Of a stretch of DNA of 64,000 bases, positions 14,918 to 47,485 are shown piece after piece. This DNA comes from a virus. Taxonomy: Duplodnaviria > Caudoviricetes. Position 1 is the first letter of the stretch. Each line of letters starts with the position of its first letter. Where the stretch lies: IMG/VR virus record IMGVR_UViG_3300036803_000035, positions 793 through 64,792 of that record. One strand, written 5' to 3'. Made by a program: the position numbers and the translations under genes. Under the pieces are notes generated by a model. It ran no database searches and was not told the origin of the DNA. It saw only the letters and a program-made list of their open reading frames with translations.

Positions 14918-15403
14918 GTGTCGCGAGGTCGCAAACCGAAGCCGTCTTATCTGCGCATTGTCGGCGGCAATGCAGGACGTCGCCCGCTCAATACCCGCGA
15001 GCCGACGGCGCCGCTCAGCGTGCCCTCGCCGCCGTCGATCTTATACGGCGACGCGAAGTTGGAATGGCGGCGCGTGGCGCGCTCGCTCGCCGAGATGGGC
15101 GTCCTGTCATCGATCGATCGCGCGGCGCTCGCCGCCTACTGCCAAGCCTACGGGGTTTGGTTGCAGGCCGAGCGTCACATCAAAACGCTCGCCGACAGCG
15201 GCGACAAATACGGCGGGCTGCTGACCAAGACCACCAACGGCAACGTGATCCAGAACCCGCTCGTCGGCATCGCCAACAAGGCGCGCGCCGACATGGTCCG
15301 CTTCGCTGCCGAGTTTGGAATGACGCCGAGTGGTCGCAGCCGTGTCCAGATCGACCCGAACGCAAAGCAAAAGCAGGCGGACCCCGCCCGCAAGTATTTC
15401 TGA
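14918..15403 (+). CDS. terS: Terminase small subunit (P27 family)
   Basis: GRKPKP..LRIVGGNAGRRPLN...P.PP...EWRRV..L...GVL..IDRAALAAYC...NPLV...FGMTPSGRSR. Confidence 0.92.
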   Translation: MSRGRKPKPSYLRIVGGNAGRRPLNTREPTAPLSVPSPPSILYGDAKLEWRRVARSLAEMGVLSSIDRAALAAYCQAYGVWLQAERHIKTLADSGDKYGGLLTKTTNGNVIQNPLVGIANKARADMVRFAAEFGMTPSGRSRVQIDPNAKQKQADPARKYF

Positions 15404-17180
15404 TCCAGTAACAGCCTGGGCCGAGGCTGTGGTCGCCGGCAGTGTCGTGGCGGGCCCTCATGTCCGCAACGCCTGCCGGCGGCATCTCCTCGATCTCGAA
15501 AACGGATCGCAGCGCGGCCTTAGCTGGGACTTGGAAGCGGCGCTATGGGCGATCAACTTTTTCCACGACGTGTTGCGATTGAACGGCGGCCAATTCGAGG
15601 GTCGACCATTCGACTTGCACCCGTCGCAGATATTCAAGACCGGCGCGCTGTTCGGGTGGAAGCGAGCCGACGGGTCGCGAAGGTTTCGCCGCGCCTACAT
15701 CGAGGAGGGGAAGGGCAACGGTAAGTCACCGTGGGCCGCCGGCACCGGCATGTATTGCCTCCTCGCCGACGATGAAGCGCGCGCCGAGGTCTACGCCGCG
15801 GCGAGCAAAAAGGATCAGGCGTTCGTTCTGTTTCGTGACGCCGTGGCGATGCAGGAGCAATCGCCGGCGCTGTCGGAGCGGCTCGTAAAATCGGGCGGCA
15901 ACCCCGTCTGGAATTTGGCCGATCATCAAACCGGATCGTTCTTCCGGCCGATCTCGTCGGATGACGGGCAATCGGGACCGCGACCGCATTGCGCGCTGCT
16001 CGACGAAGTGCACGAGCACAAAGACGGCAAGATGGTCGAGATGTTGGAGCGCGGCTTCAAATGGCGCCGCCAGCCGCTCCTCATCATGATCACGAATTCG
16101 GGCAGCGATCGGAACTCGGTGTGCTGGCAAGAGCATCAGCACGCGGTCCGCGTCGCCGCCGGCACGATGACGCCCGACGAGGCCTTCACCTTCGTGGGCG
16201 AGCCGATCGATGATCAGACGTTCTCCTTTGTCTGCGCCCTCGATCGTGAGGATGACCCGTTCGAGGATCCCGACTGCTGGGTGAAAACCAACCCGCTGCT
16301 CGGCGTGACGGTGCAGAACGATTACCTCGCCGGCGTCGTGAAGCAGGCGAAGCAAATCCCCGGCAAACAGAACACGATCCTGCGGCTGCACTTCTGCGTG
16401 TGGACCGACGCCGACACCGCCTGGATGTCCCGCCAGGCGCTCGAAGCCTGCCTCGCCGACTTCGATCCGGCCGAGCACTACGGCAAGCCCTGCTATCTCG
16501 GGCTCGATCTGTCCGCGACGCGCGATCTGACCGCGATGGCGTTCCTCGTGCCGACCGGCATGATGACCGTCGAACGCACCGAGGCGAGCGGCCTGACTCG
16601 CGTCGTGCAGGCGGCGACCTTCGACTGCTGGATCGAGGCGTGGACGCCGGCCGAGACGATCACCGCGCGCGCGCTGCAAGATCAGGCGCCCTACGATGTG
16701 TGGGCCGATCAAGGCTGGCTCAACGCGACCCCGGGCAGCCTGGTGCGGTACGACATCCTCGCCGCGCGCGTCGCCGAGGCGGCGAACGAATACGAAATTC
16801 GCGCGCTCGCTTACGACAGCTATGCCTTCCAGAAGCATTTCGTGCCGGAGCTCGACCAGGTCGGTTGCACCGTGCCGATCGTCGAGCACCCGCAAGGCGG
16901 CAAACGGAAGGCGGCCGAGAGCGGTTTGTGGATGCCGGGCTCCGTCAAGGAGCTCGAAGCGCTGATCCTCGAAAAGCGCGTCCGCATTCTGCGATCGCCG
17001 GTGACGATCTCGGCGATCATGTCGGCGGTCATCGAGGCCGATCCCTTCGACAACAAGTGGTTTTCGAAGCGCAAGGCGACCAATCGCATCGATCCGGCCG
17101 TGGCGCTGGCGATGGCGACGGGCGCCGCCACGAGCGTCGCGGGATCACCCTACGAAAAGCGGGGCCTATTGGTACTCTGA
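15330..17180 (+). CDS. terL: Terminase large subunit
   Basis: EEGKGNGKS Walker A, LLDEVHEH Walker B, GLDLSATRDLTA nuclease motif, RIDPAVALAMA. Exact start uncertain. Confidence 0.95.
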   Translation: MVAAVSRSTRTQSKSRRTPPASISDPVTAWAEAVVAGSVVAGPHVRNACRRHLLDLENGSQRGLSWDLEAALWAINFFHDVLRLNGGQFEGRPFDLHPSQIFKTGALFGWKRADGSRRFRRAYIEEGKGNGKSPWAAGTGMYCLLADDEARAEVYAAASKKDQAFVLFRDAVAMQEQSPALSERLVKSGGNPVWNLADHQTGSFFRPISSDDGQSGPRPHCALLDEVHEHKDGKMVEMLERGFKWRRQPLLIMITNSGSDRNSVCWQEHQHAVRVAAGTMTPDEAFTFVGEPIDDQTFSFVCALDREDDPFEDPDCWVKTNPLLGVTVQNDYLAGVVKQAKQIPGKQNTILRLHFCVWTDADTAWMSRQALEACLADFDPAEHYGKPCYLGLDLSATRDLTAMAFLVPTGMMTVERTEASGLTRVVQAATFDCWIEAWTPAETITARALQDQAPYDVWADQGWLNATPGSLVRYDILAARVAEAANEYEIRALAYDSYAFQKHFVPELDQVGCTVPIVEHPQGGKRKAAESGLWMPGSVKELEALILEKRVRILRSPVTISAIMSAVIEADPFDNKWFSKRKATNRIDPAVALAMATGAATSVAGSPYEKRGLLVL

Positions 17181-17193
17181 CGGAGGCCGCGCG

Positions 17194-18636
17194 ATGGCTT
17201 TTCCCTTTTTCGGGCGCCTGATCGCGCCGTTCCGGCGTGCGCAAACGACCGGCGTTCCCAGCTACGGATTGATCCCGCCGCTCGGCAGCGTGCAATCCGC
17301 TACCGGGCTGCTGATCAGCCAAGCCACGGCAATGACCGTGGCGGGTGTCAATCGCGCCGTGACGGTGCGCGCGAACAGCGTCGCGCTGTGCCGACCGACA
17401 CTGTACGCGGTCGCCGACGACGGCACGCACACGCCGCTCAAATCGGCCGATCACCCGCTCGTGCAGCTGTTGAAGCGCCCGAACCGGGTCCAGACGCGGT
17501 TCGAATTCATTCGCGATACCTGGATCGCGCTGTTGCTTCGCGGCAATGCCTATTGGGCGATCAAGCGCGATCGCCGCGGCACGCCGATCGAACTCATCTG
17601 GATCAATCCCGACGCGGTGATGATCCTCGAAGCGGTCGACGGCCAGTGGTTCTACAACGTGAACCGCATCGGTCTTTTCATGATCGAGGCGCTCCGCGAA
17701 TTCCCGATCTCGATCCCGGCCGAGGACATCATTCATTTCCGCGGGCCGTCATTCAACATGCTGGTCGCCGCCTCGACGATCGGCCTGGCGCGCGACACGA
17801 TCGGCCTCTCGATGGGGCAGACTCAACAGCAGGCGCGGTGGCTCGGCAACGGCGCGCGCCCCGGCGTGGTCCTCGAAGCATCGAAGCCGCTGTCCGATGC
17901 GGCGGCGAAGCGGTTGAAGCAATCGTGGGAAGATTACAACGCCGGCATTCAGAACATCGGTCGCACCGCCGTCCTCGAAGATGGCGTGACCGCCAAGCAA
18001 ATGTCGCTGACGTCGGTCGATCTCGAATTCGTTGCGCAATCGAACCTGACCATGCAGGACATCGCCCGATTTTTCGGGGTGCCGCTGCGCAAGCTGTACC
18101 AGCCCGACACATCGCGCGGCTCGACCGTCATCCAAGAGGATCAGGCTTTCGTCAATGAGACGGTGAGCCCCGATCTCGAAATGCTCGAACAGAAATTGGA
18201 TCGGGAGTTTAGCCTCGACGAGGACGGCCTGGTGCTCGACTTCGACGAGTCGCCGCTACTCCGTGCGGATCCCAAGACCCGCTACGACATCGGCCGGATC
18301 GGCGTGCTGTCGGGGCTGGTCGCGCCGAACGAATTCCGCAAGAGCGAACGGCTGCCGCCGGTGCCGGATGGCGACACCGTGCGCGCGCCGGTCAACCTGG
18401 CCGCGCTCGGCAGCGACATGACAGGCACCGCCGGCGACGGCGCCGGGCGGCCGGCGAACGGCGAGGAGCCCGAGCCAGGCGTGCCCACGCAGGGCGGCGG
18501 CGGCAAGACGAAACGCGATCTGCCGATCGCGCTGACGATCAACGTCGAGGCGGCCAAGCCGTCGCGACGGACCGGCACGATCACGCGGCGCGAGGACGGC
18601 TCGGCCGAGCTCGACCTGGTGGAGGCTGCGGAATGA
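17194..18636 (+). CDS. Portal protein, HK97 family
   Basis: LLRGNAYW, DIIHFRG, NGARPGVVL, LEDG, IARFFGVP, NEFRKSERLPP. Confidence 0.95.
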   Translation: MAFPFFGRLIAPFRRAQTTGVPSYGLIPPLGSVQSATGLLISQATAMTVAGVNRAVTVRANSVALCRPTLYAVADDGTHTPLKSADHPLVQLLKRPNRVQTRFEFIRDTWIALLLRGNAYWAIKRDRRGTPIELIWINPDAVMILEAVDGQWFYNVNRIGLFMIEALREFPISIPAEDIIHFRGPSFNMLVAASTIGLARDTIGLSMGQTQQQARWLGNGARPGVVLEASKPLSDAAAKRLKQSWEDYNAGIQNIGRTAVLEDGVTAKQMSLTSVDLEFVAQSNLTMQDIARFFGVPLRKLYQPDTSRGSTVIQEDQAFVNETVSPDLEMLEQKLDREFSLDEDGLVLDFDESPLLRADPKTRYDIGRIGVLSGLVAPNEFRKSERLPPVPDGDTVRAPVNLAALGSDMTGTAGDGAGRPANGEEPEPGVPTQGGGGKTKRDLPIALTINVEAAKPSRRTGTITRREDGSAELDLVEAAE

Positions 18637-22505: not shown

Positions 22506-22907
22506 CTATGTGGCGGCGGCCTCGTCGTGGTCGGGTTGCTGATCGCCCTTGCGATCGTCACTTGGCGCGATCGTCGGCTGCGGCGGAAGTATCACCTGAA
22601 TTGACGCCATGAACGTCCGCAGGCGATAGCCGTCCCACTTCGCCTCGATTTGCAGATGCGCCGCGATCTGCTGCGCGATTTCATTCGCGACGCTGCGGCG
22701 TATGTGATCCATCGGCAAGTGCACCATGCCGGCCGCGTCGGTCGCGAAATAGCGCGCGCCGGTCGCGATCAATAAGCGGTCGATCGGCACGAGCACAAAC
22801 CCGGCATCCTTCGCCGCTTCTGCCAGCGTGATCGGCACCGGATCGGGCGCATCGACGCCTTCGGTCATCGCGTAGAGCCTCACCATCGAAAGCCTCTCCC
22901 ATGACAA
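22506..22907 (-). CDS. Possible reverse-strand moron, hypothetical
   Basis: Fills the 22434-22900 gap; natural amino-acid composition; start uncertain. Confidence 0.4.
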   Translation of the reverse strand: MSWERLSMVRLYAMTEGVDAPDPVPITLAEAAKDAGFVLVPIDRLLIATGARYFATDAAGMVHLPMDHIRRSVANEIAQQIAAHLQIEAKWDGYRLRTFMASIQVILPPQPTIAPSDDRKGDQQPDHDEAAAT

Positions 22908-24091
22908 TGATCCGCGGCGTTGTCGCCGCTGAAATCCGCGCGCTCGGTGATGACGAAGTCGAGGTCATCATGTCAACCGGCATGATCGCGCGCGACGGGC
23001 ACATCCTGGTGCCGCAAGGCGCGATCCTCGACAACTATCGCAACAACCCGATTTTCCTGTGGCAGCACGACCAGCGAATCCCGGTCGGTCGCGCCGAGGA
23101 AATCGCCATCGAGGGCGACAAGATCAGGGCGCGCGTGCGCTTCGCGCCGACCGGCATCTCGGCTGACGCCGACAAAGTCCGCGGCCTGGTCAAGAGCGAC
23201 ATCGTTCGCGCCGTCTCGGTCGGCTTCGATCCGCTCGACGGCGAGCCGCTCGATCCGAAAAAGCCGAAAGGCGGCCAGCGCTTCACCCGGTGGGAGCTCC
23301 TCGAATGCTCATTCGTGAGCGTGCCCGCCGATCCAGGCGCGGTCGTGACCGCGCGCGACATGGAGACACCCGACATGACGGAAGGCACCACGGCGGCGAC
23401 CGCAACGCGCGCCGCTGAACCGATCTATTACGCCAACATTCGCGGCCTGTGGGACGTCGCGCGCCTTGCCTGCCTCCTCGAGGATTTGGGCTGGGAGCAA
23501 GCCTGCGCCCGGTTCGAGGCGGAGCTCGAAGGCGACGGCTCGGCCGTGCCGGGGATGCTCGCGAACGCATTGTCCTCGCTCGGCGAGGCGCTGATCACGA
23601 TGACGCAGGAGGAGGTCGGCGAGTTCCTCGAAGGTCGCGGCATCGAGATCGACGAGGATGAGGAGCTCGACGAGCTCGACGACGACGATCGCGCCACGGT
23701 CGCGGCTTCGGCCAATCCCGCATTGAAGCGCTTTCGCCTGGCGGTCCGCCGCGCGCGACGCCTCCAAAAGCGCGACGATGATGCCGCCGGCGAGATCACG
23801 ATGTCGGCCGGCGCGATCGCGCGCTGCCGCGAGCACCTGGCGCACCACGAGTCGGCGATGGAAAACCATCGCGCTGCGATGCGGGCGCACAAGCGCGCCG
23901 CCGATTGCATCCGCTCCATCCCCGGCGTCGGCGACGGCGACGAAAACGACGGCCAGCAAATCCAGACATCGGCCGGCACCGCCAAGAGCGATGGCTCGGA
24001 AGGCGATCGCGCCGCCGAGGCGCTGGCGCGTACCGCCGACATCGATCGGCTGCGCCGGCTCGGCGAGCTCAACGCGCGGTCCCTGTCGTAA
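22901..24091 (+). CDS. Prohead (maturation) protease, HK97 family, with a long acidic C-terminal extension
   Basis: NPIFLWQH...PVGR, AVSVGF, ELLECSFVSVPADPGA. Confidence 0.9.
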   Translation: MTMIRGVVAAEIRALGDDEVEVIMSTGMIARDGHILVPQGAILDNYRNNPIFLWQHDQRIPVGRAEEIAIEGDKIRARVRFAPTGISADADKVRGLVKSDIVRAVSVGFDPLDGEPLDPKKPKGGQRFTRWELLECSFVSVPADPGAVVTARDMETPDMTEGTTAATATRAAEPIYYANIRGLWDVARLACLLEDLGWEQACARFEAELEGDGSAVPGMLANALSSLGEALITMTQEEVGEFLEGRGIEIDEDEELDELDDDDRATVAASANPALKRFRLAVRRARRLQKRDDDAAGEITMSAGAIARCREHLAHHESAMENHRAAMRAHKRAADCIRSIPGVGDGDENDGQQIQTSAGTAKSDGSEGDRAAEALARTADIDRLRRLGELNARSLS

Positions 24092-24574
24092 ATGCCGAGC
24101 GATCGCCGCGTTGTGCGGGCGCAAGGCACGGTGACATCGAACAACCGCCGGCAGATCGGCGTGTTGGTCGAGCACGCGACCTTCGAACGCCTCGCCGACA
24201 TGGCACACCGGCGCTCGATTTCCGTCGCAGCGCTGATCCGTGAAGTGCTCCCCAAAGCGCTCGGCGGACCTATCAGTTTCGCCGTCGTGCCAACCGGCTC
24301 GCGCGTGATCCTGCCAACCGGCGAGATCATCGAGGGCGCGCCGATCGACAGCGACGATTACCGCGCGACGGCGCGTGATCTCGGCTATGGCGAGGACACC
24401 CTCGCTATGTGCCAGGAGCACGATCCGCTCCACGCGCGGCTCTGCAATTGGCTTGGCGTCGAGAGTCACGCGCTGCGGCACGCCGCTGGTTTGCCGCACG
24501 ACGCTCGCCTCGCCACGCTCGAAGAAGCCGCGGTTCTCGCGGTGCAAAAGTTCACCCGCGCAATGCGCGCGTGA
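24092..24574 (+). CDS. Protein with N-terminal ribbon-helix-helix (CopG-like) domain
   Basis: RQIGVLVEHATFERLADMAHRRSISVAALIREVL fits the RHH pattern. Confidence 0.5.
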   Translation: MPSDRRVVRAQGTVTSNNRRQIGVLVEHATFERLADMAHRRSISVAALIREVLPKALGGPISFAVVPTGSRVILPTGEIIEGAPIDSDDYRATARDLGYGEDTLAMCQEHDPLHARLCNWLGVESHALRHAAGLPHDARLATLEEAAVLAVQKFTRAMRA

Positions 24575-24668
24575 GTCGCGGGCGCGATCCAACGCGCTCG
24601 CCTTTCCTGCCAACGATCACCGCGCCGAACGGCCCGACGGCGCATCCCTCCCATTGATTGAGGTTTCC

Positions 24669-26117
24669 ATGACCGAAAACACTCGGGTCGCAGACCTTTT
24701 GCGTCAACGCGGCGAGGCGTTCGATCGCTTCGCAGCGCTCGCCGAAAAAGACACCCTCACCGCCGAGGAGCAAACCGCCTACACGACGGCGCGCGCCGAG
24801 GTCGATCAACACGACGCGGCAATCGCCCGCGCGAAGGAATTGCAGACACGCTCGGCTGCAACCGCTCGCCCGGTCGCCGGCCAGGAGAATCAGCGCGCTC
24901 GCCTGTTCGCCTCGCCGGAGAACGATCCGTATCTGTCGGACGAAGCGGCTCGCAACCGCGGCCTCGAAACCAAAAAGGGCCTCGTCGTCGGCGGCATGAT
25001 GCGCATGATCGGCGGCGCCGCGACGCACGAAAATCCGGCGCTTCTCGCGGCGCAGCTGTATGGCGAAAGCCATCCGGTTACGCGCGCGCTCGTGGTCGGC
25101 ACCGGCTCGGCCGGCGGCCTGATCGTGCCGCCCGATTACATGAGTGAGATTATCGAATTGCTGCGCCCGAAGGCACAGGTGCGCGGCGCCGGTCCTCGCG
25201 TCATTCCGATGCCGCGCGGCACGATGCGCATTCCCGGCCAGGACGCCGCGGCGACCGCCTCGTATCAGAACGAAACGAAGGCGATCACGCAGTCTCAGCA
25301 ACGGCTGCGCAGCATCATCGCAGCTTACAAAAAGCTGACCGCGTTGGTGCCTGTCAGCAATGACATGATGAGGTACGCCGACCCGGCGGTCGACGCATTC
25401 GTTCGCGACGATCTCGTCAAGGTCATCGCGCTCCGTGAGGACAAGGCCTTCCTGCTCGACGACGGCACGCAGGACACGCCGAAAGGAATGCTCGCTTTCG
25501 CGAATTCCTGGGTCGAGGCCAATGCTGGCACGGTTGGCGTGTTCTCGACCACGGCCGCGTCAACGCTCGCGGTCAATGGTGCCGATCCGGCGAACAGCAC
25601 CGGCGGCAACTTCATCACGTCAACGTCGGGCTACACGCTGGCGACGGTCGCAAGCGAGCTCGGCGGCGCGATCAATCGCCTCGACCAGGCGAATGTGCCC
25701 GACGATCGCCGCGTGTGGTTCATGAACCCGCGTTCGAAGAATTACCTGTTCAATGTCCAGAACTCCCTCGGCGTCTACGTGTACCGCGAGGAGATGAGCG
25801 ACGGGACGCTGCTCGGGTATCCCTTCAAGCTGACGACGCAGATCGGCACGAGCTATTGGGACGCGAGCGCGACCAATAAGGACCTGTCGTTCGTATTCCT
25901 CGCCGAGATGACCGAGGCGATGATCCTCGACTCCATGCAGATGGAGCTCGCGGTGTCGCGCGAGGGCACGTACGTCGACTCCAATTCGAACACGGTCAGC
26001 GCGTTCCAGAGTGATCAGACGATCATTCGGGCAATCGCCGAGCATGACTTCCAGCTTCGCCACGACCAAGCGGTTGCGGTGATCCAGGCGGTCCGCTGGG
26101 CGCCGGCGATCAGCTAA
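24669..26117 (+). CDS. Major capsid protein, HK97 fold, with coiled-coil delta domain
   Basis: AGGLIVPPDY...IIELLRP, KKLTALVPVSNDMM, TLLGYPF, AFQSDQTIIRAIAEHDF.LRH; GAGG RBS before ATG 24669. Confidence 0.95.
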   Translation: MTENTRVADLLRQRGEAFDRFAALAEKDTLTAEEQTAYTTARAEVDQHDAAIARAKELQTRSAATARPVAGQENQRARLFASPENDPYLSDEAARNRGLETKKGLVVGGMMRMIGGAATHENPALLAAQLYGESHPVTRALVVGTGSAGGLIVPPDYMSEIIELLRPKAQVRGAGPRVIPMPRGTMRIPGQDAAATASYQNETKAITQSQQRLRSIIAAYKKLTALVPVSNDMMRYADPAVDAFVRDDLVKVIALREDKAFLLDDGTQDTPKGMLAFANSWVEANAGTVGVFSTTAASTLAVNGADPANSTGGNFITSTSGYTLATVASELGGAINRLDQANVPDDRRVWFMNPRSKNYLFNVQNSLGVYVYREEMSDGTLLGYPFKLTTQIGTSYWDASATNKDLSFVFLAEMTEAMILDSMQMELAVSREGTYVDSNSNTVSAFQSDQTIIRAIAEHDFQLRHDQAVAVIQAVRWAPAIS

Positions 26118-26203
26118 TCGCCCACGCGACCGATTGAGTGAGCCCCGGCCATTGCGCCGGGGCTTCTCGTCTCTGCCTGCCTTCACCTTTCGGGAGATTT
26201 CCG

Positions 26204-26686
26204 ATGACGGACATCCTTGTGTCCAAGAACATTGGTGCAATCGTCACTGTCAAAAACGGTTCCACCAACAACACGCTGACCGCTGCGGGCGCCGGCGACA
26301 ACACCACGAAGAACGGCGTCGCGATCGATCGCATGGGCCTCGGCGCCGGTATGCCGCTGTCGATGGTCGCTTCGGTGCTGTTCGATGCGACACTCGCCTC
26401 GGGCTCGACGCTGACGGCTCTGATCACGGTTTCCGACAGCGCCGACAATTCGACCTTCGCCGCTTATGCGAGCGAGGCGGCCGCAGTGACGGTCGCGACC
26501 GGCCCGTCCGGTGGCGGCGTCGTCAGCGGGTGCCATTCCCTCGCGGTCGATCTGTCGAGCGCGCGCCGGTGGGTCCGTGTCGATCACGTGCCGCATCTGA
26601 CCCGCGCTGGCACCGATACCGCGATCACGCGCGCGGCCGCCACGCTGGCCGGCTTCGATCGCCTCGTCGCGCCGGCGTCGGTCTAA
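26204..26686 (+). CDS. Putative head decoration protein
   Basis: Immediately after the capsid gene; beta-rich, ends VDLSSARRWVR...ATLAGFDRL; GGGAGA RBS. Confidence 0.55.
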   Translation: MTDILVSKNIGAIVTVKNGSTNNTLTAAGAGDNTTKNGVAIDRMGLGAGMPLSMVASVLFDATLASGSTLTALITVSDSADNSTFAAYASEAAAVTVATGPSGGGVVSGCHSLAVDLSSARRWVRVDHVPHLTRAGTDTAITRAAATLAGFDRLVAPASV

Positions 26687-26716
26687 GCGCACGGCTAAAG
26701 CGCACGCGGTGCGGTT

Positions 26717-27250
26717 ATGCCCGAATTCGGGCCACGGACGAGCGACGAGGACATCGCCGCTCTCCGTGCGCTCGTCTCACGGCTGCACCGCCCGCGTGTC
26801 ATCGAAATCGGGTCCTGGCTCGGTCGCACCGCGCTCGCGATGCGCCAGGCCGGGGCCGACCAGGTGCATTGCGTTGATACCTGGCTCGGCACCGACGATC
26901 CGACCGATCTGACCTTCGAGCTCGGCCGCCATCATGGTCACGCCGGGCTCCTGCGCGCCTTTTGCGAGAACGTCGGCGAGGACCTCGGGGTCGGGGTTTT
27001 CCCGTATGTCGGCGAGTCGATCTTTTGGGCGGCGCACTGGCAATGGCAAGCCGATCTGATCTTCATCGACGCCACGCACTCCTACGAGGCCGCGATCGCC
27101 GACATCCGCGCCTGGACGCCGCACGTGCGCAAGGGCGGGATCCTCTGCGGCCACGACTATTGCCCCGCCTGGCCGGGCGTTAAACGCGCCGTGCAGGAAA
27201 CCGGCGGCTTTCAGGTCAACGCCACCGTTTGGTGGCGCCTCGTCATGTGA
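26717..27250 (+). CDS. Class I SAM-dependent methyltransferase (Methyltransf_24-like)
   Basis: VIEIGSWLGRT, HCVDTW, DLIFIDATHSYE...DI..W...VRKGGILCGHDY...WPGV..AV. Confidence 0.9.
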   Translation: MPEFGPRTSDEDIAALRALVSRLHRPRVIEIGSWLGRTALAMRQAGADQVHCVDTWLGTDDPTDLTFELGRHHGHAGLLRAFCENVGEDLGVGVFPYVGESIFWAAHWQWQADLIFIDATHSYEAAIADIRAWTPHVRKGGILCGHDYCPAWPGVKRAVQETGGFQVNATVWWRLVM

Positions 27251-27427
27251 TCCGCGGTCGCCAACCCCGCGGGGGGCCCGATCCGCAGTGTTGCCCCTGG
27301 CGCTGCGGGTCGGGTCGGCGACCGAGTCTCGAGTTTTTTGGCGGTCCGGAAATCCGGACTCGCGAGCAAAGCCGCCGCCGATATCGGTGATAACCGGTTG
27401 TCAACGCGCCCGCCTTACGGTCGCTCG

Positions 27428-27637
27428 ATGAACCGACGTCGCCGGGGGCGGACGATCGCGGTGCCGGCGGTGCTGAGCGCCGAATTCGATGAGCGCTATC
27501 GCGCCGCTCGGGCAGTCGATCCCGAGCGAGCCCAGCGCTTGCTCGACCTTGAGGTTCGCCGGCAAGGCGTGGTCTGCGCCGCACCGGTTCGGGCGCGGCG
27601 ATCGCGCCGTATCGGCCACAACCGAGGCGCACGATGA
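27428..27637 (+). CDS. Hypothetical protein
   Basis: In-frame part of ORF 27338..27637; its stop overlaps the radical SAM ATG. Confidence 0.4.
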   Translation: MNRRRRGRTIAVPAVLSAEFDERYRAARAVDPERAQRLLDLEVRRQGVVCAAPVRARRSRRIGHNRGAR

Positions 27638-28869
27638 CCGACGGGGTTTACCGTCATCCGCCGGGCAAGCTGAGCCGCTGGGGCGTCGTCGATGTCGGGC
27701 TGAAATGCCCGCATTCCTGCCAGTTTTGCTACTACGTCCATCTCGACGGCGCCGAGGACCCGTTCAGCGGGATGCGCCGCGCCAAGTTTCATTCGACCGG
27801 CCACATCCTCGAACTCGCCCGCGCGCTCAAAACGGCCGACTTTGTCGGCTTCGATGTGACCGGCGGCGAGCCCAGCTTGCACCCGGGGATCGTCGATCTC
27901 GCGGTCGAGGCCAAGCGGCTCGACCTGGCCATGCGCGTCATCACGCTGGGTCAATTCCTGACCCGCAAGGTGCCGGCCTCCGGCAGCGATACGCTATTGG
28001 ACGCGCTGCTCAAGGCCGGCGTCGCCGACTTCCTGCTCTCGGTTCACGCCGTCGAGGAGGAGCAATATCACCGGATCACCGGCGGCAGCTGGGCGAAGCT
28101 GCTGCAGGCCATGCGCGAGCTCGACCGCGCCGGCTTCGACTACTGCACCAACACGACCGTCCACGAGGGCAATTTCCGCGAGCTCCCGGCGATCGCCGAC
28201 GAGATCGCCAGCCACCGGGTCTATGTCGCCAACCTCATCATCATGAATGCCTACTACGCCTGGTCGCGGCCGGGCGCCGAGGCGCAGGGCGTCCAGGCGC
28301 ATTATTCGGCGGTCCGCCCCTACGTGCTCGAAGCGCGCGACCGGCTCGAAGCGGCCGGCATCGCGGTCAACGTCCGATATGCGCCGCTCTGCACGATGCG
28401 CGGGGCCGAGCGCAACCTGGTGGGCATTGTGGGGGTCAGACACGATCCGCACGAATGGATGAACGCGATCGACCACATCGAGCCGCGATCGCCGAGCTCG
28501 ATGGGTCAGCGCCTCGCCCTGCAGGACCACGACGCCGGCGCGCCCTTCATCCCGGCCCCGCCCGGCGAGATGATCACCGTCGGCGGCCGGCCGCTGCCTC
28601 TCCTGGCGCGGCGCCACGGCAAGGTCTTTCCGAGCTCCTGTCGCGGCTGCGCGGCCGCCTATGTCTGCGACGGCGTCGATCCGCGCTATCTCGCCGAGCG
28701 CGGCGATCACGAGCTCGAACCCTACAGCACGTTCCGCGGCGACCTCATCGATCGGGAGCGGCTGGCCTACCAACCCGCCTTCATCTGCAAAACGGCCCCG
28801 CTGGCGCCCGCCCGTGAGGCTGTGAGGGCCGCTTTCAATCGGGGGGACAATGTGGCTGCTGCCGAGTAA
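27634..28869 (+). CDS. Radical SAM enzyme with C-terminal auxiliary Cys cluster (SPASM/twitch-like)
   Basis: CPHSCQFC (CxxxCxxC), TGGEPSLHP, C-terminal CRGCAAAYVCDG. Confidence 0.9.
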   Translation: MTDGVYRHPPGKLSRWGVVDVGLKCPHSCQFCYYVHLDGAEDPFSGMRRAKFHSTGHILELARALKTADFVGFDVTGGEPSLHPGIVDLAVEAKRLDLAMRVITLGQFLTRKVPASGSDTLLDALLKAGVADFLLSVHAVEEEQYHRITGGSWAKLLQAMRELDRAGFDYCTNTTVHEGNFRELPAIADEIASHRVYVANLIIMNAYYAWSRPGAEAQGVQAHYSAVRPYVLEARDRLEAAGIAVNVRYAPLCTMRGAERNLVGIVGVRHDPHEWMNAIDHIEPRSPSSMGQRLALQDHDAGAPFIPAPPGEMITVGGRPLPLLARRHGKVFPSSCRGCAAAYVCDGVDPRYLAERGDHELEPYSTFRGDLIDRERLAYQPAFICKTAPLAPAREAVRAAFNRGDNVAAAE

Positions 28870-30307
28870 GGCGCGTCCAGCGAGCCTGGCGCGCTTCTTT
28901 GGGGCGTTCGAAAAGACCGGCGGATCGACGCCGGGGCTCGTGATCGTCGATCACGTCGATTGGTCGGCGCACGTCGAGGCCTACGAGACGATCGCCCTGC
29001 CGATCGGCTGGTCGTGGCGAATCACCGACGGGGTGACCCAGGGCGACAAGCTGCGCGAGATTTGGGTCGACGTCGAAAACTGCGCCTGGCTCGGGCTGAT
29101 CGGCGACGATTGCGTTCCGGAAACGACCGGCTGGGATCGCGCCCTGGTCGGCGAGCTCGACGGCAGCAATTTCGTCCACTGCAATGACGGCTGGCAGGCA
29201 CCGCGCCGGGTCGGCAATTGCTGGATCATGGCCGGCGACCTGGTGCGCGCGGTCGGCTACATCTTCCCGCCGGGGCTGCATCACCTGTTTGTCGACGACG
29301 TGTGGGAGGAGCTCTCGCGTCGAGTCCGCGGCATCCGCATGTGCCGCATGGACGTGATGGTCCGCCACCGGCACGTCATGGCCGGCATGGCGGCAGCCGA
29401 CGACACCCACCGCTCCGTCTACGGCACCGGCTTTTCAGGCGAGCAGGGCGCTCCCGATCGGAAGAACGGGTTATGGACAACCGACGAGGCGACCTACACC
29501 GCCTGGCTCGCCGGCGACGCCGAGCGAGCGGCCGAAGCCATTCGTGCCTTACGGCGCGTTGACGCCCAGGTCAACAACGAGGCCGAGCTCCAACAGAAGC
29601 GCATGGCGCGGGTCGCCAAGCGATCGGTGCTATTCGCGCTGCCGGTGCACGACAAGTTCGAAGCCGGCTGTTTCGTCTCGTGGACCGAGACGATCACGCT
29701 CCTCGAACGGATGAAAATCCGGCGCAGCGAGCAGCTGATCATCGGGAGCTCGAACCTACCCAAGGCGCGCAACCGCCTCTGCGCCTACTTCCTCGCCGGC
29801 GATTGGGACGATCTCGTTTTCATCGACAGCGACATGGAGTGGCCCGCCGGCGGGATCGTGCGGCTGCTGGCGTCGGACAAGCCGATCATCGGCGCGGTCG
29901 GTCGGCGCAAGTGCGAGGAGCTCAGCTGGTGCACGCTCTTGATGCCGAAGGGCTCGCTGGTCAATCAGGATGATATGGGCGCTCTCGAAGTGCGCCGCGT
30001 CGGCACCGGGCTGTTGAAGATTTCGCGCGAGGCCTTCGAAACGATCATGAAGGCGCGACCGGATTTACACTGCGAGCCCGCCGATCCCGACATGAGCGAG
30101 GCCGAGCGCGCGCTCTATCATCGATTTTTCCAGCACGGCGAGGCCGACGCCGGCGAGGATTATTTCTTCTGCGATCTGTATCGCGAATGTGGCGGTCAGA
30201 TTTGGATCGATCCGACGATCAAGCTGGGGCACACCGGAACACATACGTGGTTCGGCACCTTCGGCGACGAGCTCGGCGGTCTGTTCGAAGTCGCCGAGGC
30301 GGCATGA
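28850..30307 (+). CDS. Two-domain GT-A fold glycosyltransferase
   Basis: Domain 1: LIGDDCVP..GWD...HLFVDDVW. Domain 2: NLPKARN...LVFIDSDMEW...GEDYFFC...GGQIWIDPTIKLGHTG. Confidence 0.8.
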   Translation: MWLLPSKARPASLARFFGAFEKTGGSTPGLVIVDHVDWSAHVEAYETIALPIGWSWRITDGVTQGDKLREIWVDVENCAWLGLIGDDCVPETTGWDRALVGELDGSNFVHCNDGWQAPRRVGNCWIMAGDLVRAVGYIFPPGLHHLFVDDVWEELSRRVRGIRMCRMDVMVRHRHVMAGMAAADDTHRSVYGTGFSGEQGAPDRKNGLWTTDEATYTAWLAGDAERAAEAIRALRRVDAQVNNEAELQQKRMARVAKRSVLFALPVHDKFEAGCFVSWTETITLLERMKIRRSEQLIIGSSNLPKARNRLCAYFLAGDWDDLVFIDSDMEWPAGGIVRLLASDKPIIGAVGRRKCEELSWCTLLMPKGSLVNQDDMGALEVRRVGTGLLKISREAFETIMKARPDLHCEPADPDMSEAERALYHRFFQHGEADAGEDYFFCDLYRECGGQIWIDPTIKLGHTGTHTWFGTFGDELGGLFEVAEAA

Positions 30308-30648
30308 CAGACTGCAAGATCGAGACAGGGGCCGGCTGGATCAAATTTCACTCGTGCCCCTCAGTCGCCGAGTGCTCGCTATTCCGTCGATGCCGATTGT
30401 CGCCGATCCCGCTGGGCGTGCTGGGCGTGCGATCGGGCGACGGCATCGCCGTTCTCAAATGCGCGCAGCCGATCAGCGCGGCGCAAGAGCAACGCATCCG
30501 CGATATGTGGCAATGGCTCAACGATCCGAAGTGGCATCGATCGACGCCGCCGCTCGCCATCCTCGAACCGGGCTGCGATCTCACGATCCTGCGCGACGAC
30601 GCGCGGGCGAACGCCAACTATTCGGCGATCTTCGGCGACAGCGCATGA
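30304..30648 (+). CDS. Hypothetical protein
   Basis: ATGA-coupled. Confidence 0.5.
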   Translation: MTDCKIETGAGWIKFHSCPSVAECSLFRRCRLSPIPLGVLGVRSGDGIAVLKCAQPISAAQEQRIRDMWQWLNDPKWHRSTPPLAILEPGCDLTILRDDARANANYSAIFGDSA

Positions 30649-30752
30649 TCACGACCATCGTCCTCCTCGTCGCGCTGATCATGTGCGGCGGCGAAAGCCC
30701 GATGCCATTCATCGCCGCGATCTTCGCGGTGATCATGTTCAACGTGTTCTGA
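30645..30752 (+). CDS. Small hydrophobic membrane peptide
   Basis: ATGA-coupled; 35 aa, almost all hydrophobic. Confidence 0.45.
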   Translation: MITTIVLLVALIMCGGESPMPFIAAIFAVIMFNVF

Positions 30753-30850
30753 AAACATCAGGGGCGGGGAGCACCCGAAACTCCCCGCCCCTTCCTCGGC
30801 CGGCTGGCGGACCGCACCCAACGGTCGATCACCCTCCTACAGGACGAACA

Positions 30851-31135
30851 ATGCTTTCGCAACCGGGTCGCTTCATGCGGCCCTTTTTTGTGGCGCAACC
30901 GTCGATGCCTCAACCGTGGAAATTGATCGAATTCGTCGAGCACTACCCCGGCGGATTTCAGATCGGCACGCAACGCGGCGTCCCGCCCGACGTCGCCGAA
31001 AAGCTGGTCGGCGAGGGCGTCGCGCGAATCCTTCGCACGCTCGGCGAGGAGCCGACGCCGGCGCCGGTCACTGCGCCCAGCCCCACACCCGAACATCATC
31101 GCGGCAAGCCGCCGCGTCATGAGAGGACGCGATGA
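30851..31135 (+). CDS. Small hypothetical head-associated protein
   Basis: AGGA RBS; VPPDVAEKLVGEGVA pattern typical of short genes before head-tail connectors. Confidence 0.5.
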   Translation: MLSQPGRFMRPFFVAQPSMPQPWKLIEFVEHYPGGFQIGTQRGVPPDVAEKLVGEGVARILRTLGEEPTPAPVTAPSPTPEHHRGKPPRHERTR

Positions 31136-31554
31136 ACCTCCTGCAAAGTTACGCGATCGGCGCAGCCGTCACCGGGCAGACGCCGGGGCCTGTCGTCAAG
31201 TTCAACGCGCAACCGCGCGCGCTCACGATCCAGGCGAATTTCGTCTATGGCGCCGGCGGCACCACCGCGACCGCTTACGTGCAGACTTCGCACGATGGCG
31301 GCGCGAATTGGACCGACATCGCGGCCTTGCAATTCACCACGGCGGGCGGCCGCAAGACCGTCAATCTGACATCGCGCACGCCGGTCACCACGCCGGTCGT
31401 GCCGAGCGATGGCTCGATGACCGCGAACACGTGCCAGGACGGCATCTTGGGGCCGATGTACCGCGTCAAGGTCACCACGACCGGCACGTACACCGGCACC
31501 ACGACGCTCTCCGTCGACATCGCCAGCGATCAGGCGACTTTCCCGAACGCCTAA
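31132..31554 (+). CDS. Hypothetical beta-sandwich virion protein
   Basis: Thr/Gly-rich; GAGAGGA RBS. Confidence 0.6.
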   Translation: MNLLQSYAIGAAVTGQTPGPVVKFNAQPRALTIQANFVYGAGGTTATAYVQTSHDGGANWTDIAALQFTTAGGRKTVNLTSRTPVTTPVVPSDGSMTANTCQDGILGPMYRVKVTTTGTYTGTTTLSVDIASDQATFPNA

Positions 31555-31570
31555 AACCGGAGCGACGCGG

Positions 31571-32260
31571 ATGGCAATGCGGTGCATCACCACTCTGCTG
31601 TCGCCGGCGGACAGCTATGACCTGGTCACGCTCGACGTGGTCAAGGCCGAGCTCCAGCTGACCGACGATGCAAGTGATCCCTGGCTGAAAACCGCGATCA
31701 CTCAGGTGTCCGCCGCGATGGCGCGCTTTTGCAATCGATCGAACGCGATCGCGAGCGAGGCATCCTTCGCCGTCGAGACGGTGCAAGACCTGTTCTACCC
31801 CGAGCGCGACGCCTATCCGTTCCAGGTGCCCGGCGGCGCCTCCGTGTTGCAGCTGTCGCACTGGCCGGTCACGAACATCCTCGAAGTCAACATCACCGAT
31901 CCGGCGGGCGCCACGCCGCAGATTTTGGTCGCGGACACCGATTACGTGCTCGACGCCTCGGTTGGGCAGCTGATCAGGCTTGACGCCTTCATGGCGTACC
32001 CGACGCAATGGGTGCCGATCCGCACCGCCGTCAAATACTCGGGCGGCTTTGACCCGATCCCCGATGATGTGGTCGATGCCGCGCTGCGCTGGGTCACGAT
32101 GCGGTGGTCCGATCGTGGCCGCGACCCGAACCTGAAATCGCTCGAACAGCCGATGGTCGGCACCAAGACCTATTGGGTCGGGGCGCAGCCGATGACCGAG
32201 GGCGTTCCGACCGAGATCGCGAGCCTCCTGATCAAGTATCGCGTGCCGGTCAGCGCATGA
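31571..32260 (+). CDS. Head-tail connector (gp6/gp15-like adaptor)
   Basis: LVTLDVVKAEL...D..L...I...S.....CNR; VKYSGGF..IPDDV..AAL; position in the operon. Confidence 0.8.
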   Translation: MAMRCITTLLSPADSYDLVTLDVVKAELQLTDDASDPWLKTAITQVSAAMARFCNRSNAIASEASFAVETVQDLFYPERDAYPFQVPGGASVLQLSHWPVTNILEVNITDPAGATPQILVADTDYVLDASVGQLIRLDAFMAYPTQWVPIRTAVKYSGGFDPIPDDVVDAALRWVTMRWSDRGRDPNLKSLEQPMVGTKTYWVGAQPMTEGVPTEIASLLIKYRVPVSA

Positions 32261-46522: not shown

Positions 46523-47485
46523 ATGCGCGCCGATTTACTCGACGTGGTTTTCACCTATTACAACCCGGAGCGTTGGCACTCGCGGCTTGAGAACTTCCGA
46601 CGCGCGGAAGATCACATGATCGCCTCGGGTGTCCGCTATTCGACCGTCGAGCTCGCCAATGGCGATCGACCGTTCGATCTCCCCGACCGCGACGGCGTGC
46701 GGCGCATCCGCCTGCGCGGCAATGACGTGATGTGGTTCAAGGAAAATCAGGCGAACATCGCCGAAAAGGAATTGGCGCCCGATCGGCAGTATTTCGCCCT
46801 CGTCGATGGCGACGTGCTGTTCTACGACTACGAATGGGCCGCCAACACGGTGCACGCGCTGCAATTGCACCCGATCGTCCAGGTCAGCGATCGCGTGATC
46901 TGGCTCGGACCCAAGGGGCAATATCTCGACGCCGGCATCTCGCTCATGCGCTCATTCAGAGCGGCGCGCCGCGTGCACTACCAAAACCACTACTATCATC
47001 CGTCGAACCCGTTCGAACTTGAACAGGGATACCCGGGCCACGCCTGGGCCTATCGGCGCGACTTCTTCCGCGCGATGGGCGGCCTCCTCGATGTCTGCAT
47101 CCTCGGCGCCGGCGACTATCACATGGCGATGGGGTTGCTCGACCTTCCCGATCGACTGACCGAGGACGGCGACTACACGCAGGGTTACCGCGACGCGATC
47201 GCCACCTGGTCGGCGCGCGCGCGTCAGGCGCTCGGTCGCGAGACGGTCGGCTATGTGCCGGGGATCACGTTCCACCTGTGGCACGGCAACCTCGCGAGCC
47301 GCGCCTACTCGACGCGCGAGCAAATCCTGATCCGCAATCAATTCGATCCGGCGGCCGATCTGTCGCGCGATCACCAGGGCGTGCTGCAATTCGCCAGCAC
47401 GAAACCGAAGTTGGTCGCCGACATCCGCGCCTACTTCGCCGAGCGCGACGAGGACTCGACCTGGCTCGGGCACGGCATTTTCTGA
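46523..47485 (+). CDS. GT-A fold glycosyltransferase-like protein
   Basis: MWFKENQANIA...FALVDGDVLF (DxD), GYPGHAWAYRR..F..MGGL....ILGAGD, ITFHLWHG. Confidence 0.65.
   Translation: MRADLLDVVFTYYNPERWHSRLENFRRAEDHMIASGVRYSTVELANGDRPFDLPDRDGVRRIRLRGNDVMWFKENQANIAEKELAPDRQYFALVDGDVLFYDYEWAANTVHALQLHPIVQVSDRVIWLGPKGQYLDAGISLMRSFRAARRVHYQNHYYHPSNPFELEQGYPGHAWAYRRDFFRAMGGLLDVCILGAGDYHMAMGLLDLPDRLTEDGDYTQGYRDAIATWSARARQALGRETVGYVPGITFHLWHGNLASRAYSTREQILIRNQFDPAADLSRDHQGVLQFASTKPKLVADIRAYFAERDEDSTWLGHGIF

Follow-up and report, generated by a model that had tools for sequence, protein, structure and literature searches.

The actinobacteriophages in which glycosylation of the virion has been demonstrated are few, and Freeman et al. 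are said to have described it in 2023 for mycobacteriophages of clusters F and O. Accounts of these two clusters describe glycosyltransferases (GTs) that act together with an O-methyltransferase to modify capsid and tail tube proteins, with Che8/Rita as the cluster F examples and Corndog-type phages as those of cluster O, in which the O-methyltransferase precedes the GTs (PMC11256854, PMC11600133). In a eukaryotic giant virus, the A064R protein of PBCV-1 combines two rhamnosyltransferase domains with a methyltransferase domain for capsid N-glycans (PMC7826918, citing Speciale et al. 2020).

The locus considered here lies in a 64,000-nucleotide stretch of viral DNA (the window), and it resembles the mycobacteriophage systems in that a methyltransferase and GT domains are encoded in the structural operon; in one relative, the cassette is found 3′ of the tail tube gene. 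Several features nonetheless set it apart. The host of this uncultured soil phage is a proteobacterium, probably an alphaproteobacterium, rather than an actinobacterium, and a DNA-level search of a phage collection returned one weak capsid match only, to Komagataeibacter phage phiKM1. The GT is one two-domain GT-A protein without a Pfam match, and the cassette includes a radical SAM enzyme, of which PMC11256854 and PMC11600133 make no mention. With respect to A064R, the likeness is one of composition: both are virus-encoded sets of two GT domains and a methyltransferase, with a GT-A fold, and in A064R they lengthen a glycan of the major capsid protein and cap it with methyl groups. A064R is, however, a single polypeptide without a radical SAM partner. 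We know of no radical SAM step in the sugar coating of phage particles. Overall, we consider it probable, at roughly 60%, that the cassette is expressed late and serves to assemble a glycan on a virion protein and to tailor it.

Organization of the cassette within the head operon

The cassette follows the genes for a prohead protease, an HK97-type capsid protein and a cement-like protein, and it precedes the head–tail adaptor gene, with the genes from the capsid gene onward on the + strand:

24669..26117, + strand, major capsid protein with HK97 fold (Pfam Phage_capsid, E 2.3e-35; phrog_10 major head protein, E 2e-51, residues 98-573)
26204..26686, + strand, small beta-rich cement/decoration-like protein, 160 aa (ESM Atlas features and structure, together with position)
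26717..27250, + strand, Methyltransf_24 methyltransferase (PF13578, E 1.2e-16)
27255..27345, + strand, hairpin with U6, terminator- or attenuator-like (RNA fold)
27634..28869, + strand, radical SAM enzyme (PF04055, E 5.3e-20)
28850..30307, + strand, two-domain GT-A glycosyltransferase (phrog_14945 and phrog_1574, predicted structure)
31571..32260, + strand, head–tail adaptor, downstream boundary of the cassette slot (phrog_442, E 5e-22)

A preliminary description of this DNA had placed three co-oriented genes between a decoration gene and the head–tail connector, the last two overlapping by 20 nt. The coordinates, order and orientation were all borne out, and the overlap of the radical SAM and double-GT genes is exactly 20 nt (28850-28869). 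No transmembrane segments were found in the methyltransferase, the radical SAM enzyme or the double GT. Upstream of the cassette, the capsid reading frame is open from 24375, with the ATG at 24669 as its likely start. The cement-like protein, whose gene is kept 3′ of the capsid gene in relatives, has a Ser+Thr content of 21.9%. It matches phage clusters in the ESM Atlas with a feature score of 0.96 and a predicted-structure TM of 0.89, and PF21190 (Bbp16) is present in 23-42% of the members of these clusters. The PF21190 HMM itself gave no match to the phage genome at E ≤ 0.1, and it is by these ESM Atlas features, the predicted-structure TM and the place of its gene after that of the capsid that the protein appears to resemble Bbp16.

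The methyltransferase and radical SAM genes are separated by 384 nt (27251-27633) of non-coding-like sequence that contains a strong hairpin and a U-run. The hairpin is long and GC-rich, and the RNA fold of 27245-27400 has an energy of -85.2 kcal/mol (z -3.9 versus shuffles). The hairpin region can be aligned in part with sequence 3′ of the cement gene in one relative (L002), and Rfam gave no match within 26000-31500, hairpin included. A small Arg-rich ORF at 27338-27637 was considered as the precursor of a RiPP. This reading was rejected, as the ORF has no homologue in relatives and its codon-position GC (0.75/0.61/0.71, versus ~0.69/0.48/0.85 in neighbouring genes) is of a non-coding kind.

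Features of the three predicted enzymes

The methyltransferase gene encodes a 177-aa protein that matches PF13578 over the entire profile (positions 1-105 of 105; 61.9 bits versus a cut-off of 26.3), in agreement with the Methyltransf_24 identity first proposed for it. The product is a class I SAM-dependent methyltransferase that would serve as an accessory tailoring enzyme. Its sole PDB sequence match, 6g7d, is labelled ‘methyltransferase domain protein’, and we take this entry to be a mycobacterial mannoside 1-O-methyltransferase. The protein also aligns to positions 305-458 of the phrog_2675 profile, which spans a GT N-domain as well, indicating that the GT N-domain and the methyltransferase are fused in other phages.

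The radical SAM enzyme (411 aa) matches PF04055 with 72.7 bits against a cut-off of 29.5. The CxxxCxxC site, where radical SAM enzymes hold the [4Fe-4S] cluster that cleaves SAM, and the extra CxxCxxxxxC cluster noted in the preliminary description are present as C25-x3-C29-x2-C32 and C336-x2-C339-x5-C345, and these six cysteines together with C253 are invariant in 28 homologues, as is the GGE SAM-binding motif (G77, G78 and E79) in homologues of the enzyme. The SPASM subgroup of radical SAM enzymes carries a seven-cysteine C-terminal motif that binds two auxiliary clusters. Here, just four invariant cysteines lie outside the SAM site (C253, C336, C339 and C345), which places the enzyme outside that subgroup and is compatible with one fully ligated, predicted twitch-like cluster of the type seen in BtrN, MoaA and SkfB, enzymes whose C-terminal domain is shortened and carries a single auxiliary Fe-S cluster.

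In terms of structure, the radical SAM model (pLDDT 92.6) matches radical SAM cores, which have a partial TIM-barrel fold, with Z values of 14-19. The best matches are BlsE (Z 19.4), SuiB (19.3) and viperin (19.3), and SkfB (18.4), MoaA (16.9), PqqE and anSME are also among the matches, so that sugar-acting and peptide-acting enzymes are tied. BlsE (cytosylglucuronate decarboxylase, PDB 7VOB), which acts on a sugar nucleoside, is the top structural match over 274 residues at 18% identity, and it is also the best profile-to-PDB match (E 2.7e-11). The likeness has limits, however, in that the enzyme reaches just 31.9 bits with the BlsE model of NCBIfam, which has a cut-off of 400. All 36 matches to NCBIfam equivalogs (BlsE, PqqE, MoaA, viperin) in fact fall far below their cut-offs, the best being PqqE at 43 bits versus 381. 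The enzyme is a member of an uncharacterised family of ~290 representative clusters (at E ≤ 1e-30), of which the four-Cys auxiliary site and fusion to GTs are features. An N-terminal peptide-recognition (RRE-type) domain is absent, and the radical SAM motif begins at residue 25. This absence, along with the position of BlsE as the nearest solved relative by both profile and fold, argues for a sugar substrate.

The double GT (485 aa) matches PHROG 14945 ‘glycosyltransferase’ over residues 3-189 and PHROG 1574 over residues 250-466, and its N- and C-terminal domains (~28850-29434 and ~29621-30259) are joined by a helical linker. The two GT-A domains claimed for this protein are supported by these PHROG matches of each half and by the AlphaFold model (pLDDT 91.6), for which Foldseek returned LH3, PmHS2, K4CP, COLGALT1, Mimivirus R699, LARGE1 and STIV A197, as well as viral GT-A proteins. 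Human LH3/COLGALT1, Pasteurella PmHS2, E. coli K4CP, LARGE1 and R699 likewise have two tandem GT-A domains (Foldseek E 3e-11 to 1e-7), but identity is 9-12%, and global TM is 0.2-0.3 because the domain arrangement differs. The substrates of these enzymes (collagen hydroxylysine, glycosaminoglycans, matriglycan) are unrelated. Residues D86 D87, D149 D150, D326-x-D328 and E436 D437 are invariant in 31 double-GT homologues, and both halves combine a Rossmann-like GT-A fold in the predicted structure with a DxD-type acidic motif for metal and nucleotide-sugar (D86-D87 and D326-x-D328). The double-GT profile had no sequence match in the PDB, and PF00535 (Glycos_transf_2, GT2) was absent from the whole phage genome, with the positive control detected in 14/14 genomes. 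A third GT-like gene, at 46523-47485, was set aside, as it has no similarity to the double GT and no family match.

These structural matches also bear on the idea that a virion protein, and not a sugar, is the substrate of the radical SAM enzyme, which would act by either cross-linking it or creating a residue for the GT in the manner of lysyl hydroxylase and the collagen GTs. The peptide-modifying enzymes SuiB, SkfB, PqqE and anSME are among its structural matches, the top GT matches LH3 and COLGALT1 glycosylate a modified lysine, and fusions of bacterial homologues include TPR and GT41 domains, which are typically protein-binding. We nevertheless regard this alternative as unlikely, given the missing RRE-type domain, the best profile match to BlsE and the non-coding-like codon composition of the small ORF upstream. 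Moreover, full double-GT genes without a radical SAM gene occupy the same slot in three relatives (L158, L159, L161), which indicates that the GT does not depend on the radical SAM enzyme.

Conservation and genomic context

The radical SAM and double-GT proteins co-occur on at least 31 phage-sized contigs (identical length). A single-sequence scan of genome contigs gave no match, and matches were obtained with an alignment-based scan. Our synteny survey covered the loci found by pattern scans, in six readable lineages. In 6/6 lineages, the pair lies inside the structural module: it is 3′ of the cement gene in five (the window, L002, L003, L005-7 and L012) and 3′ of the tail-tube gene in one (L004). 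The preliminary description had asked whether the trio stays among structural genes; the radical SAM/double-GT pair does so, and the methyltransferase falls outside the conserved core. GT genes, with or without an O-methyltransferase, stand among structural genes in the cassette and its relatives just as they do in mycobacteriophage-type virion glycosylation systems.

What follows the cement gene varies between phages. The slot may be empty or hold a GT C-domain alone, a methyltransferase and GT, a double GT alone, or the radical SAM enzyme and double GT with or without a methyltransferase, and its methyltransferases come from four unrelated families (Methyltransf_24, FkbM, Methyltransf_23 and Methyltransf_11-like). 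The core of the slot is a GT, to which methyltransferases and the radical SAM enzyme may or may not be added. Fusions of the GT N-domain to Methyltransf_24 occur in phrog_2675 and P0198/P0199. A single glycan pathway for the three enzymes is supported by the GT–methyltransferase fusions, by the radical SAM–GT fusions and by the finding that three other methyltransferase families can stand in for Methyltransf_24.

The link between homologues and structural modules stands for close full-length homologues, which are always among structural genes. It fails for the wider GT family, because remote homologues that consist of the GT C-domain only (27-33% identity) are encoded in replication modules, with genes for SSB, DNA polymerase and helicases next to them; SSB adjoins at 20 loci, exonuclease is also found, and a Methyltransf_24 gene is present at 15 loci. 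This context would fit a cassette that modifies phage DNA, by base glycosylation and/or methylation prior to packaging, in order to evade host nucleases. PHROG 2675 carries the label ‘DNA methyltransferase’, and glycosylation of phage DNA by GT-A enzymes has precedent (bioRxiv 10.1101/2023.12.21.572611). We find such a role quite improbable, since the close full-length GT homologues keep to structural genes and the genome has neither a thymidylate-synthase-like hydroxymethylase nor a C5 DNA methyltransferase; a search of the genome for TET/JBP, run without a positive control, also gave no match. The bacterial relatives of the radical SAM enzyme speak against it as well, as they are domains of multi-GT/TPR glycan synthases near sugar-nucleotide enzymes.

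In bacteria, homologues of the radical SAM enzyme are fused to GT2, GT4, GT9, GT41 and TPR proteins of up to 3614 aa, and their neighbours include FkbM methyltransferases (19 loci), NDP-sugar epimerase/dehydratases and Maf-like proteins. Radical SAM–GT2 fusions of ~660 aa also exist; in MAGs, the genes around them gave no matches to structural PHROGs, and a prophage origin is unsupported. A flagellin-glycosylation context was rejected for the bacterial homologues, as no flagellin gene lay beside the locus in five genomes.

The placement of these homologues in large glycan-synthesis islands would suit a cassette that acts on the envelope of the infected host, where it would make or alter a polysaccharide, LPS or another surface glycan, perhaps as a barrier to superinfection or as an aid to release. 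So would the double GT-A architecture, which is common to PmHS2, K4CP and LARGE1; these are polysaccharide polymerases and not protein glycosyltransferases, a point that counts against the virion-protein reading. Action on the host envelope nonetheless seems unlikely to us. The three enzymes lack transmembrane segments, and neither a flippase nor a Gtr-type partner accompanies them. The cassette lies within the late head operon, where a search for a separate promoter-like site gave no match, and a tyrosine integrase was likewise not detected. In relatives, the cassette travels with capsid or tail-tube genes.

A proposed pathway for a virion glycan

Our preferred reading remains the assembly of a glycan on the virion. 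The cassette would share a transcript with the head genes, with RNA polymerase reading through the hairpin that lies 3′ of the capsid, cement and methyltransferase genes; late expression is suggested by gene position only. All three enzymes would be soluble, with the two-domain GT-A enzyme drawing on host nucleotide-sugars. As each GT domain has its own invariant acidic motif, two or more sugars are probably added by the double GT to a virion protein that is exposed. The genes immediately upstream encode the best candidates for this acceptor, namely the cement/decoration-like protein and the capsid protein. Hydrogen-atom abstraction by the radical SAM enzyme may take place on a sugar of the nucleotide-sugar donor or of the glycan once attached, with an oxygen-independent outcome such as oxidation, epimerisation, decarboxylation or deoxygenation, and the methyltransferase would subsequently O-methylate the glycan.

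The preliminary description had envisaged that late-expressed enzymes build and tailor a glycan on Ser/Thr-rich virion proteins. The synteny, the fusions and the methyltransferase swaps support the tailoring cassette, but no acceptor signature was found. An Asn-x-Ser/Thr motif in the cement protein was rejected as an acceptor site, as it is also kept in a relative that has no GT (L168). More tentatively, and with odds that we place a little short of even, the uncharacterised radical SAM family with one twitch-like cluster may modify a sugar O2-independently during glycan assembly and, in phages, tailor a capsid or tail glycan.

If this is correct, no earlier case of a radical SAM reaction that modifies virus particles would be known. 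In actinobacteriophages, virion glycosylation reportedly makes the neutralising antibody response weaker (PMC11600133), a point of interest for phage therapy. The cassette and its graded forms in relatives suggest a modular design for capsid-linked glycan kits, which would be common among soil phages of proteobacteria as well. The cassette likewise offers a lead on what the radical SAM family does, an unstudied family with many members inside giant bacterial glycan synthases, and its compact set of four genes (acceptor candidate, methyltransferase, radical SAM enzyme and double GT) offers a system in which to seek a new radical reaction on sugars.

Cassette enzymes within the late gene order

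The 64.8 kb viral record is nearly all covered by the window, is rated complete by CheckV and has a G+C content of ~65%. Its late genes are arranged as follows, with three enzyme genes (26717-30307, +; the cassette) lying after the gene for a beta-rich protein.

Late genes and cassette
15330-17180 (+), large terminase
17194-18636 (+), portal
22901-24091 (+), prohead protease
ORF from 24375, likely start 24669 (+), HK97-type major capsid protein
26204-26686 (+), 160-aa beta-rich protein, cement/decoration-like
26717-27250 (+), Methyltransf_24 gene
27634-28869 (+), radical SAM gene
28850-30307 (+), double glycosyltransferase (GT) gene
31571-32260 (+), head-tail adaptor
downstream of the adaptor (+), major tail protein and tape measure

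Codons 1-98 of the capsid ORF (24375-24668) are Arg/Ser-rich and fall outside the PHROG match, which begins at residue 98; translation probably begins at ATG 24669. The beta-rich protein resembles Bbp16, which serves Bordetella phage BPP-1 as capsid cement (PMC3863775): the ESM Atlas feature score is 0.96 and the TM of the predicted structure 0.89. It was not matched by the PF21190 HMM, and is therefore named cement/decoration-like rather than a family member. With respect to the host, a GapR-like DNA-binding protein encoded in the phage genome, a weak capsid match to a Komagataeibacter phage, the binning of the near relative L012 with an alphaproteobacterial MAG and a homologue named 'uncultured Rhodopila' together point to an alphaproteobacterium.

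All of the elements listed in the preliminary description (genes, motifs, domains and overlap) are present at the locus. Specifically, the first gene encodes a full-length Methyltransf_24 domain (E 1.2e-16) and the second a radical SAM enzyme (PF04055, E 5e-20) with the cysteines claimed for it, C25-x3-C29-x2-C32 and a C-terminal C336-x2-C339-x5-C345. These residues, a seventh cysteine (C253) and a GGE motif are invariant in an alignment of 28 homologues, which suits a predicted SAM cluster and, in addition, a single auxiliary cluster with a full set of ligands. This cysteine arrangement is twitch-like, unlike the seven-Cys SPASM motif.

The third gene overlaps the second by exactly 20 nt. Its product has no Pfam match; PHROG 14945 ('glycosyltransferase') matches the N-terminal half and PHROG 1574 the C-terminal half. 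The two GT-A domains ascribed to it are borne out by an AlphaFold model (pLDDT 91.6) that matches the two-domain GT-A enzymes LH3, PmHS2, K4CP, COLGALT1, Mimivirus R699 and LARGE1, as well as single-domain STIV A197 and many viral GT-A proteins. Acidic motifs of the N domain (D86-D87, D149-D150) and the C domain (D326-x-D328, E436-D437) are invariant across 31 homologues; as each half has its own, both domains are probably active. A further GT-like gene, located beyond the tail fibre genes (46523-47485, +), is matched by no Pfam or PHROG family and shows no similarity to the double GT by BLASTP.

The 384 nt separating the methyltransferase and radical SAM genes look non-coding. The methyltransferase stop codon is directly followed by a long GC-rich hairpin with a U6 tract after it (27255-27345, +; -85 kcal/mol, z -3.9). 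It may attenuate transcription, so that less of the enzymes is made than of the capsid proteins. Insertion of the methyltransferase gene seems to have taken place on the 5' side of this hairpin, which is partly alignable with the region 3' of the cement gene in the relative L002. The ~825 nt 3' of the double-GT gene (30308-31131) give no convincing coding signal; codon-position GC is flat in ORFs 30189-30752 and 30683-31135, and neither has a homologue in relatives. Terminator-like hairpins at 30760-30792 (-) and 30865-30883 (+, with a T-run) may delimit the head transcription unit at its 3' end.

A variable slot beside the cement gene

Detectable relatives number 208 for the radical SAM protein and 77 for the double GT. 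The two are common to at least 31 contigs, nearly all phage-sized, a lower bound obtained by counting contigs of identical length across both match lists. In every locus that could be read, this pair lies inside the structural module: directly 3' of the cement gene in the window and in relatives L002, L003, L005-L007 and L012. In L004 it comes after the genes for the head-tail adaptor, the neck and the tail tube. A search with the cement protein revealed graded contents of the slot 3' of the cement gene.

Slot contents in the window and its relatives
No enzyme: L168, L170
GT C-domain alone: L167, L172
Methyltransf_23 or Methyltransf_11-like gene + GT C-domain: L162/L164, L169
Full double GT alone: L158, L159, L161, L160
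Radical SAM + double GT: L002 (contig ends inside the radical SAM gene), L003
Radical SAM + FkbM + double GT: L005-L007
FkbM methyltransferase + radical SAM + double GT: L012
Methyltransf_24 + radical SAM + double GT: window

Given this gradation, the core of the slot is a GT, and the radical SAM enzyme and methyltransferases (four unrelated families) are optional additions, a pattern expected for tailoring enzymes acting on the GT product. Of the trio, the radical SAM-double GT pair stays among structural genes in the loci read; the methyltransferase is variable. The L005-L007 insert between the pair also holds an opposite-strand DUF4031 domain (L007:9850-10087, -, E 9e-25).

Likely substrate of the radical SAM enzyme

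The radical SAM enzyme belongs to no characterised family. All NCBIfam matches are far under cut-offs, Foldseek TM-scores are ~0.45, and the top VIA-align rows are tied (BlsE Z 19.4, SuiB 19.3, viperin 19.3, SkfB 18.4). Against the PDB, the family profile ranks BlsE first (E 2.7e-11), followed by PqqE, MoaA and AbmM; three of these four act on nucleosides, nucleotides or sugars. The motif starts at residue 25, and the enzyme thus lacks the N-terminal peptide-recognition domain of SuiB-type maturases.

Fusions tie these enzyme types together. PHROG 2675 (599 positions) spans the GT N-domain (profile 95-250) and Methyltransf_24 (305-458), a fusion also seen in proteins P0198 and P0199, and many ~660-aa proteins join the radical SAM domain to Glycos_transf_2 domains. 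In bacterial giants of up to 3614 aa the radical SAM domain is N-terminal, followed by GT2, GT4, GT9, GT41 and TPR domains. Three such single ORFs of 1770-3614 aa from bacterial MAGs (L013:8546-19390, L017:9752-15172, L024:9962-15274), with several GT domains and long TPR arrays, are candidate 'all-in-one' glycan synthases, as yet uncharacterised. In a tree, the phage-type, double-GT-linked enzymes fall into two groups, with the 660-aa fusions interspersed, and those of large bacterial contigs are basal (midpoint root, from which transfer direction is not readable).

The genes most often found nearby at 69 bacterial loci (Desulfovibrionales, Nostoc, Nitrospira, Magnetospirillum, Planctomycetota and others) encode additional GT2 or radical SAM proteins, FkbM methyltransferases (19 loci), NDP-sugar epimerase/dehydratases, B12-type radical SAM enzymes, TPR proteins and MptE/Maf-like proteins. 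No flagellin gene lies beside these loci in five genomes tested. In two Desulfobacteraceae glycan islands, two radical SAM/GT genes flank a gene for an AbiEii-type nucleotidyltransferase toxin, which is accompanied by a 211-aa partner (L030:11840-12628, L034:3084-3872).

Taken together, the profile ranking, the missing peptide-recognition domain, the GT fusions and the dispensability of the enzyme where the double GT stands alone favor a sugar or glycan as the substrate; a step directed at a protein residue is the less probable option.

Target of the cassette and known systems

The most serious counter-reading is modification of DNA. Where the GT C-domain occurs by itself in distant homologues (27-33% identity, 576 viral stretches), it clusters with genes for SSB (20 loci), DNA polymerase, exonuclease and helicases, and a Methyltransf_24 gene is frequently present as well; only about ten of these homologues come after a major head gene. 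Nonetheless, the close homologues stay within the structural module in all loci read, and this phage genome contains no thymidylate-synthase-like hydroxymethylase, no C5 DNA methyltransferase and no TET/JBP match (the last in a search without a positive control). The stand-alone loci (PHROG 1574; L097, L105, L141, L156 and ~70 further viral loci), where an SbcD-like gene is also found, could be cases in which the same GT-methyltransferase pair acts on DNA or nucleotides. Modification of the host envelope would suit the polymerase-like double GT-A architecture but otherwise fits poorly: the enzymes are soluble, with no transmembrane-like segment in any of the three and no flippase-type partners, and the cassette lies inside the late operon of a phage in which no tyrosine integrase was detected.

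The preliminary description had envisaged late-expressed enzymes that build and tailor a glycan on Ser/Thr-rich virion proteins. The gene observation is confirmed and this interpretation partly supported: the cassette very likely builds and tailors a glycan (probability about 0.85), and its target is more likely than not a virion protein.

The nearest documented systems are mycobacteriophage virion glycosylation and PBCV-1 A064R, a GT-GT-methyltransferase for capsid glycans (PMC7826918). Cluster O mycobacteriophages carry an O-methyltransferase gene and, after it, three genes for GTs that modify capsid and tail tube proteins (PMC11600133); capsid glycans are present in cluster F phages Che8 and Rita (PMC11256854). 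Neither mycobacteriophage account mentions a radical SAM enzyme, and a literature search, including radical SAM with glycosyltransferases, found no report of one in phage or virion glycosylation. Relative to known phage virion glycosylation, what the cassette would add is tailoring by a radical SAM enzyme of an uncharacterised family, together with a modular layout of exchangeable parts.
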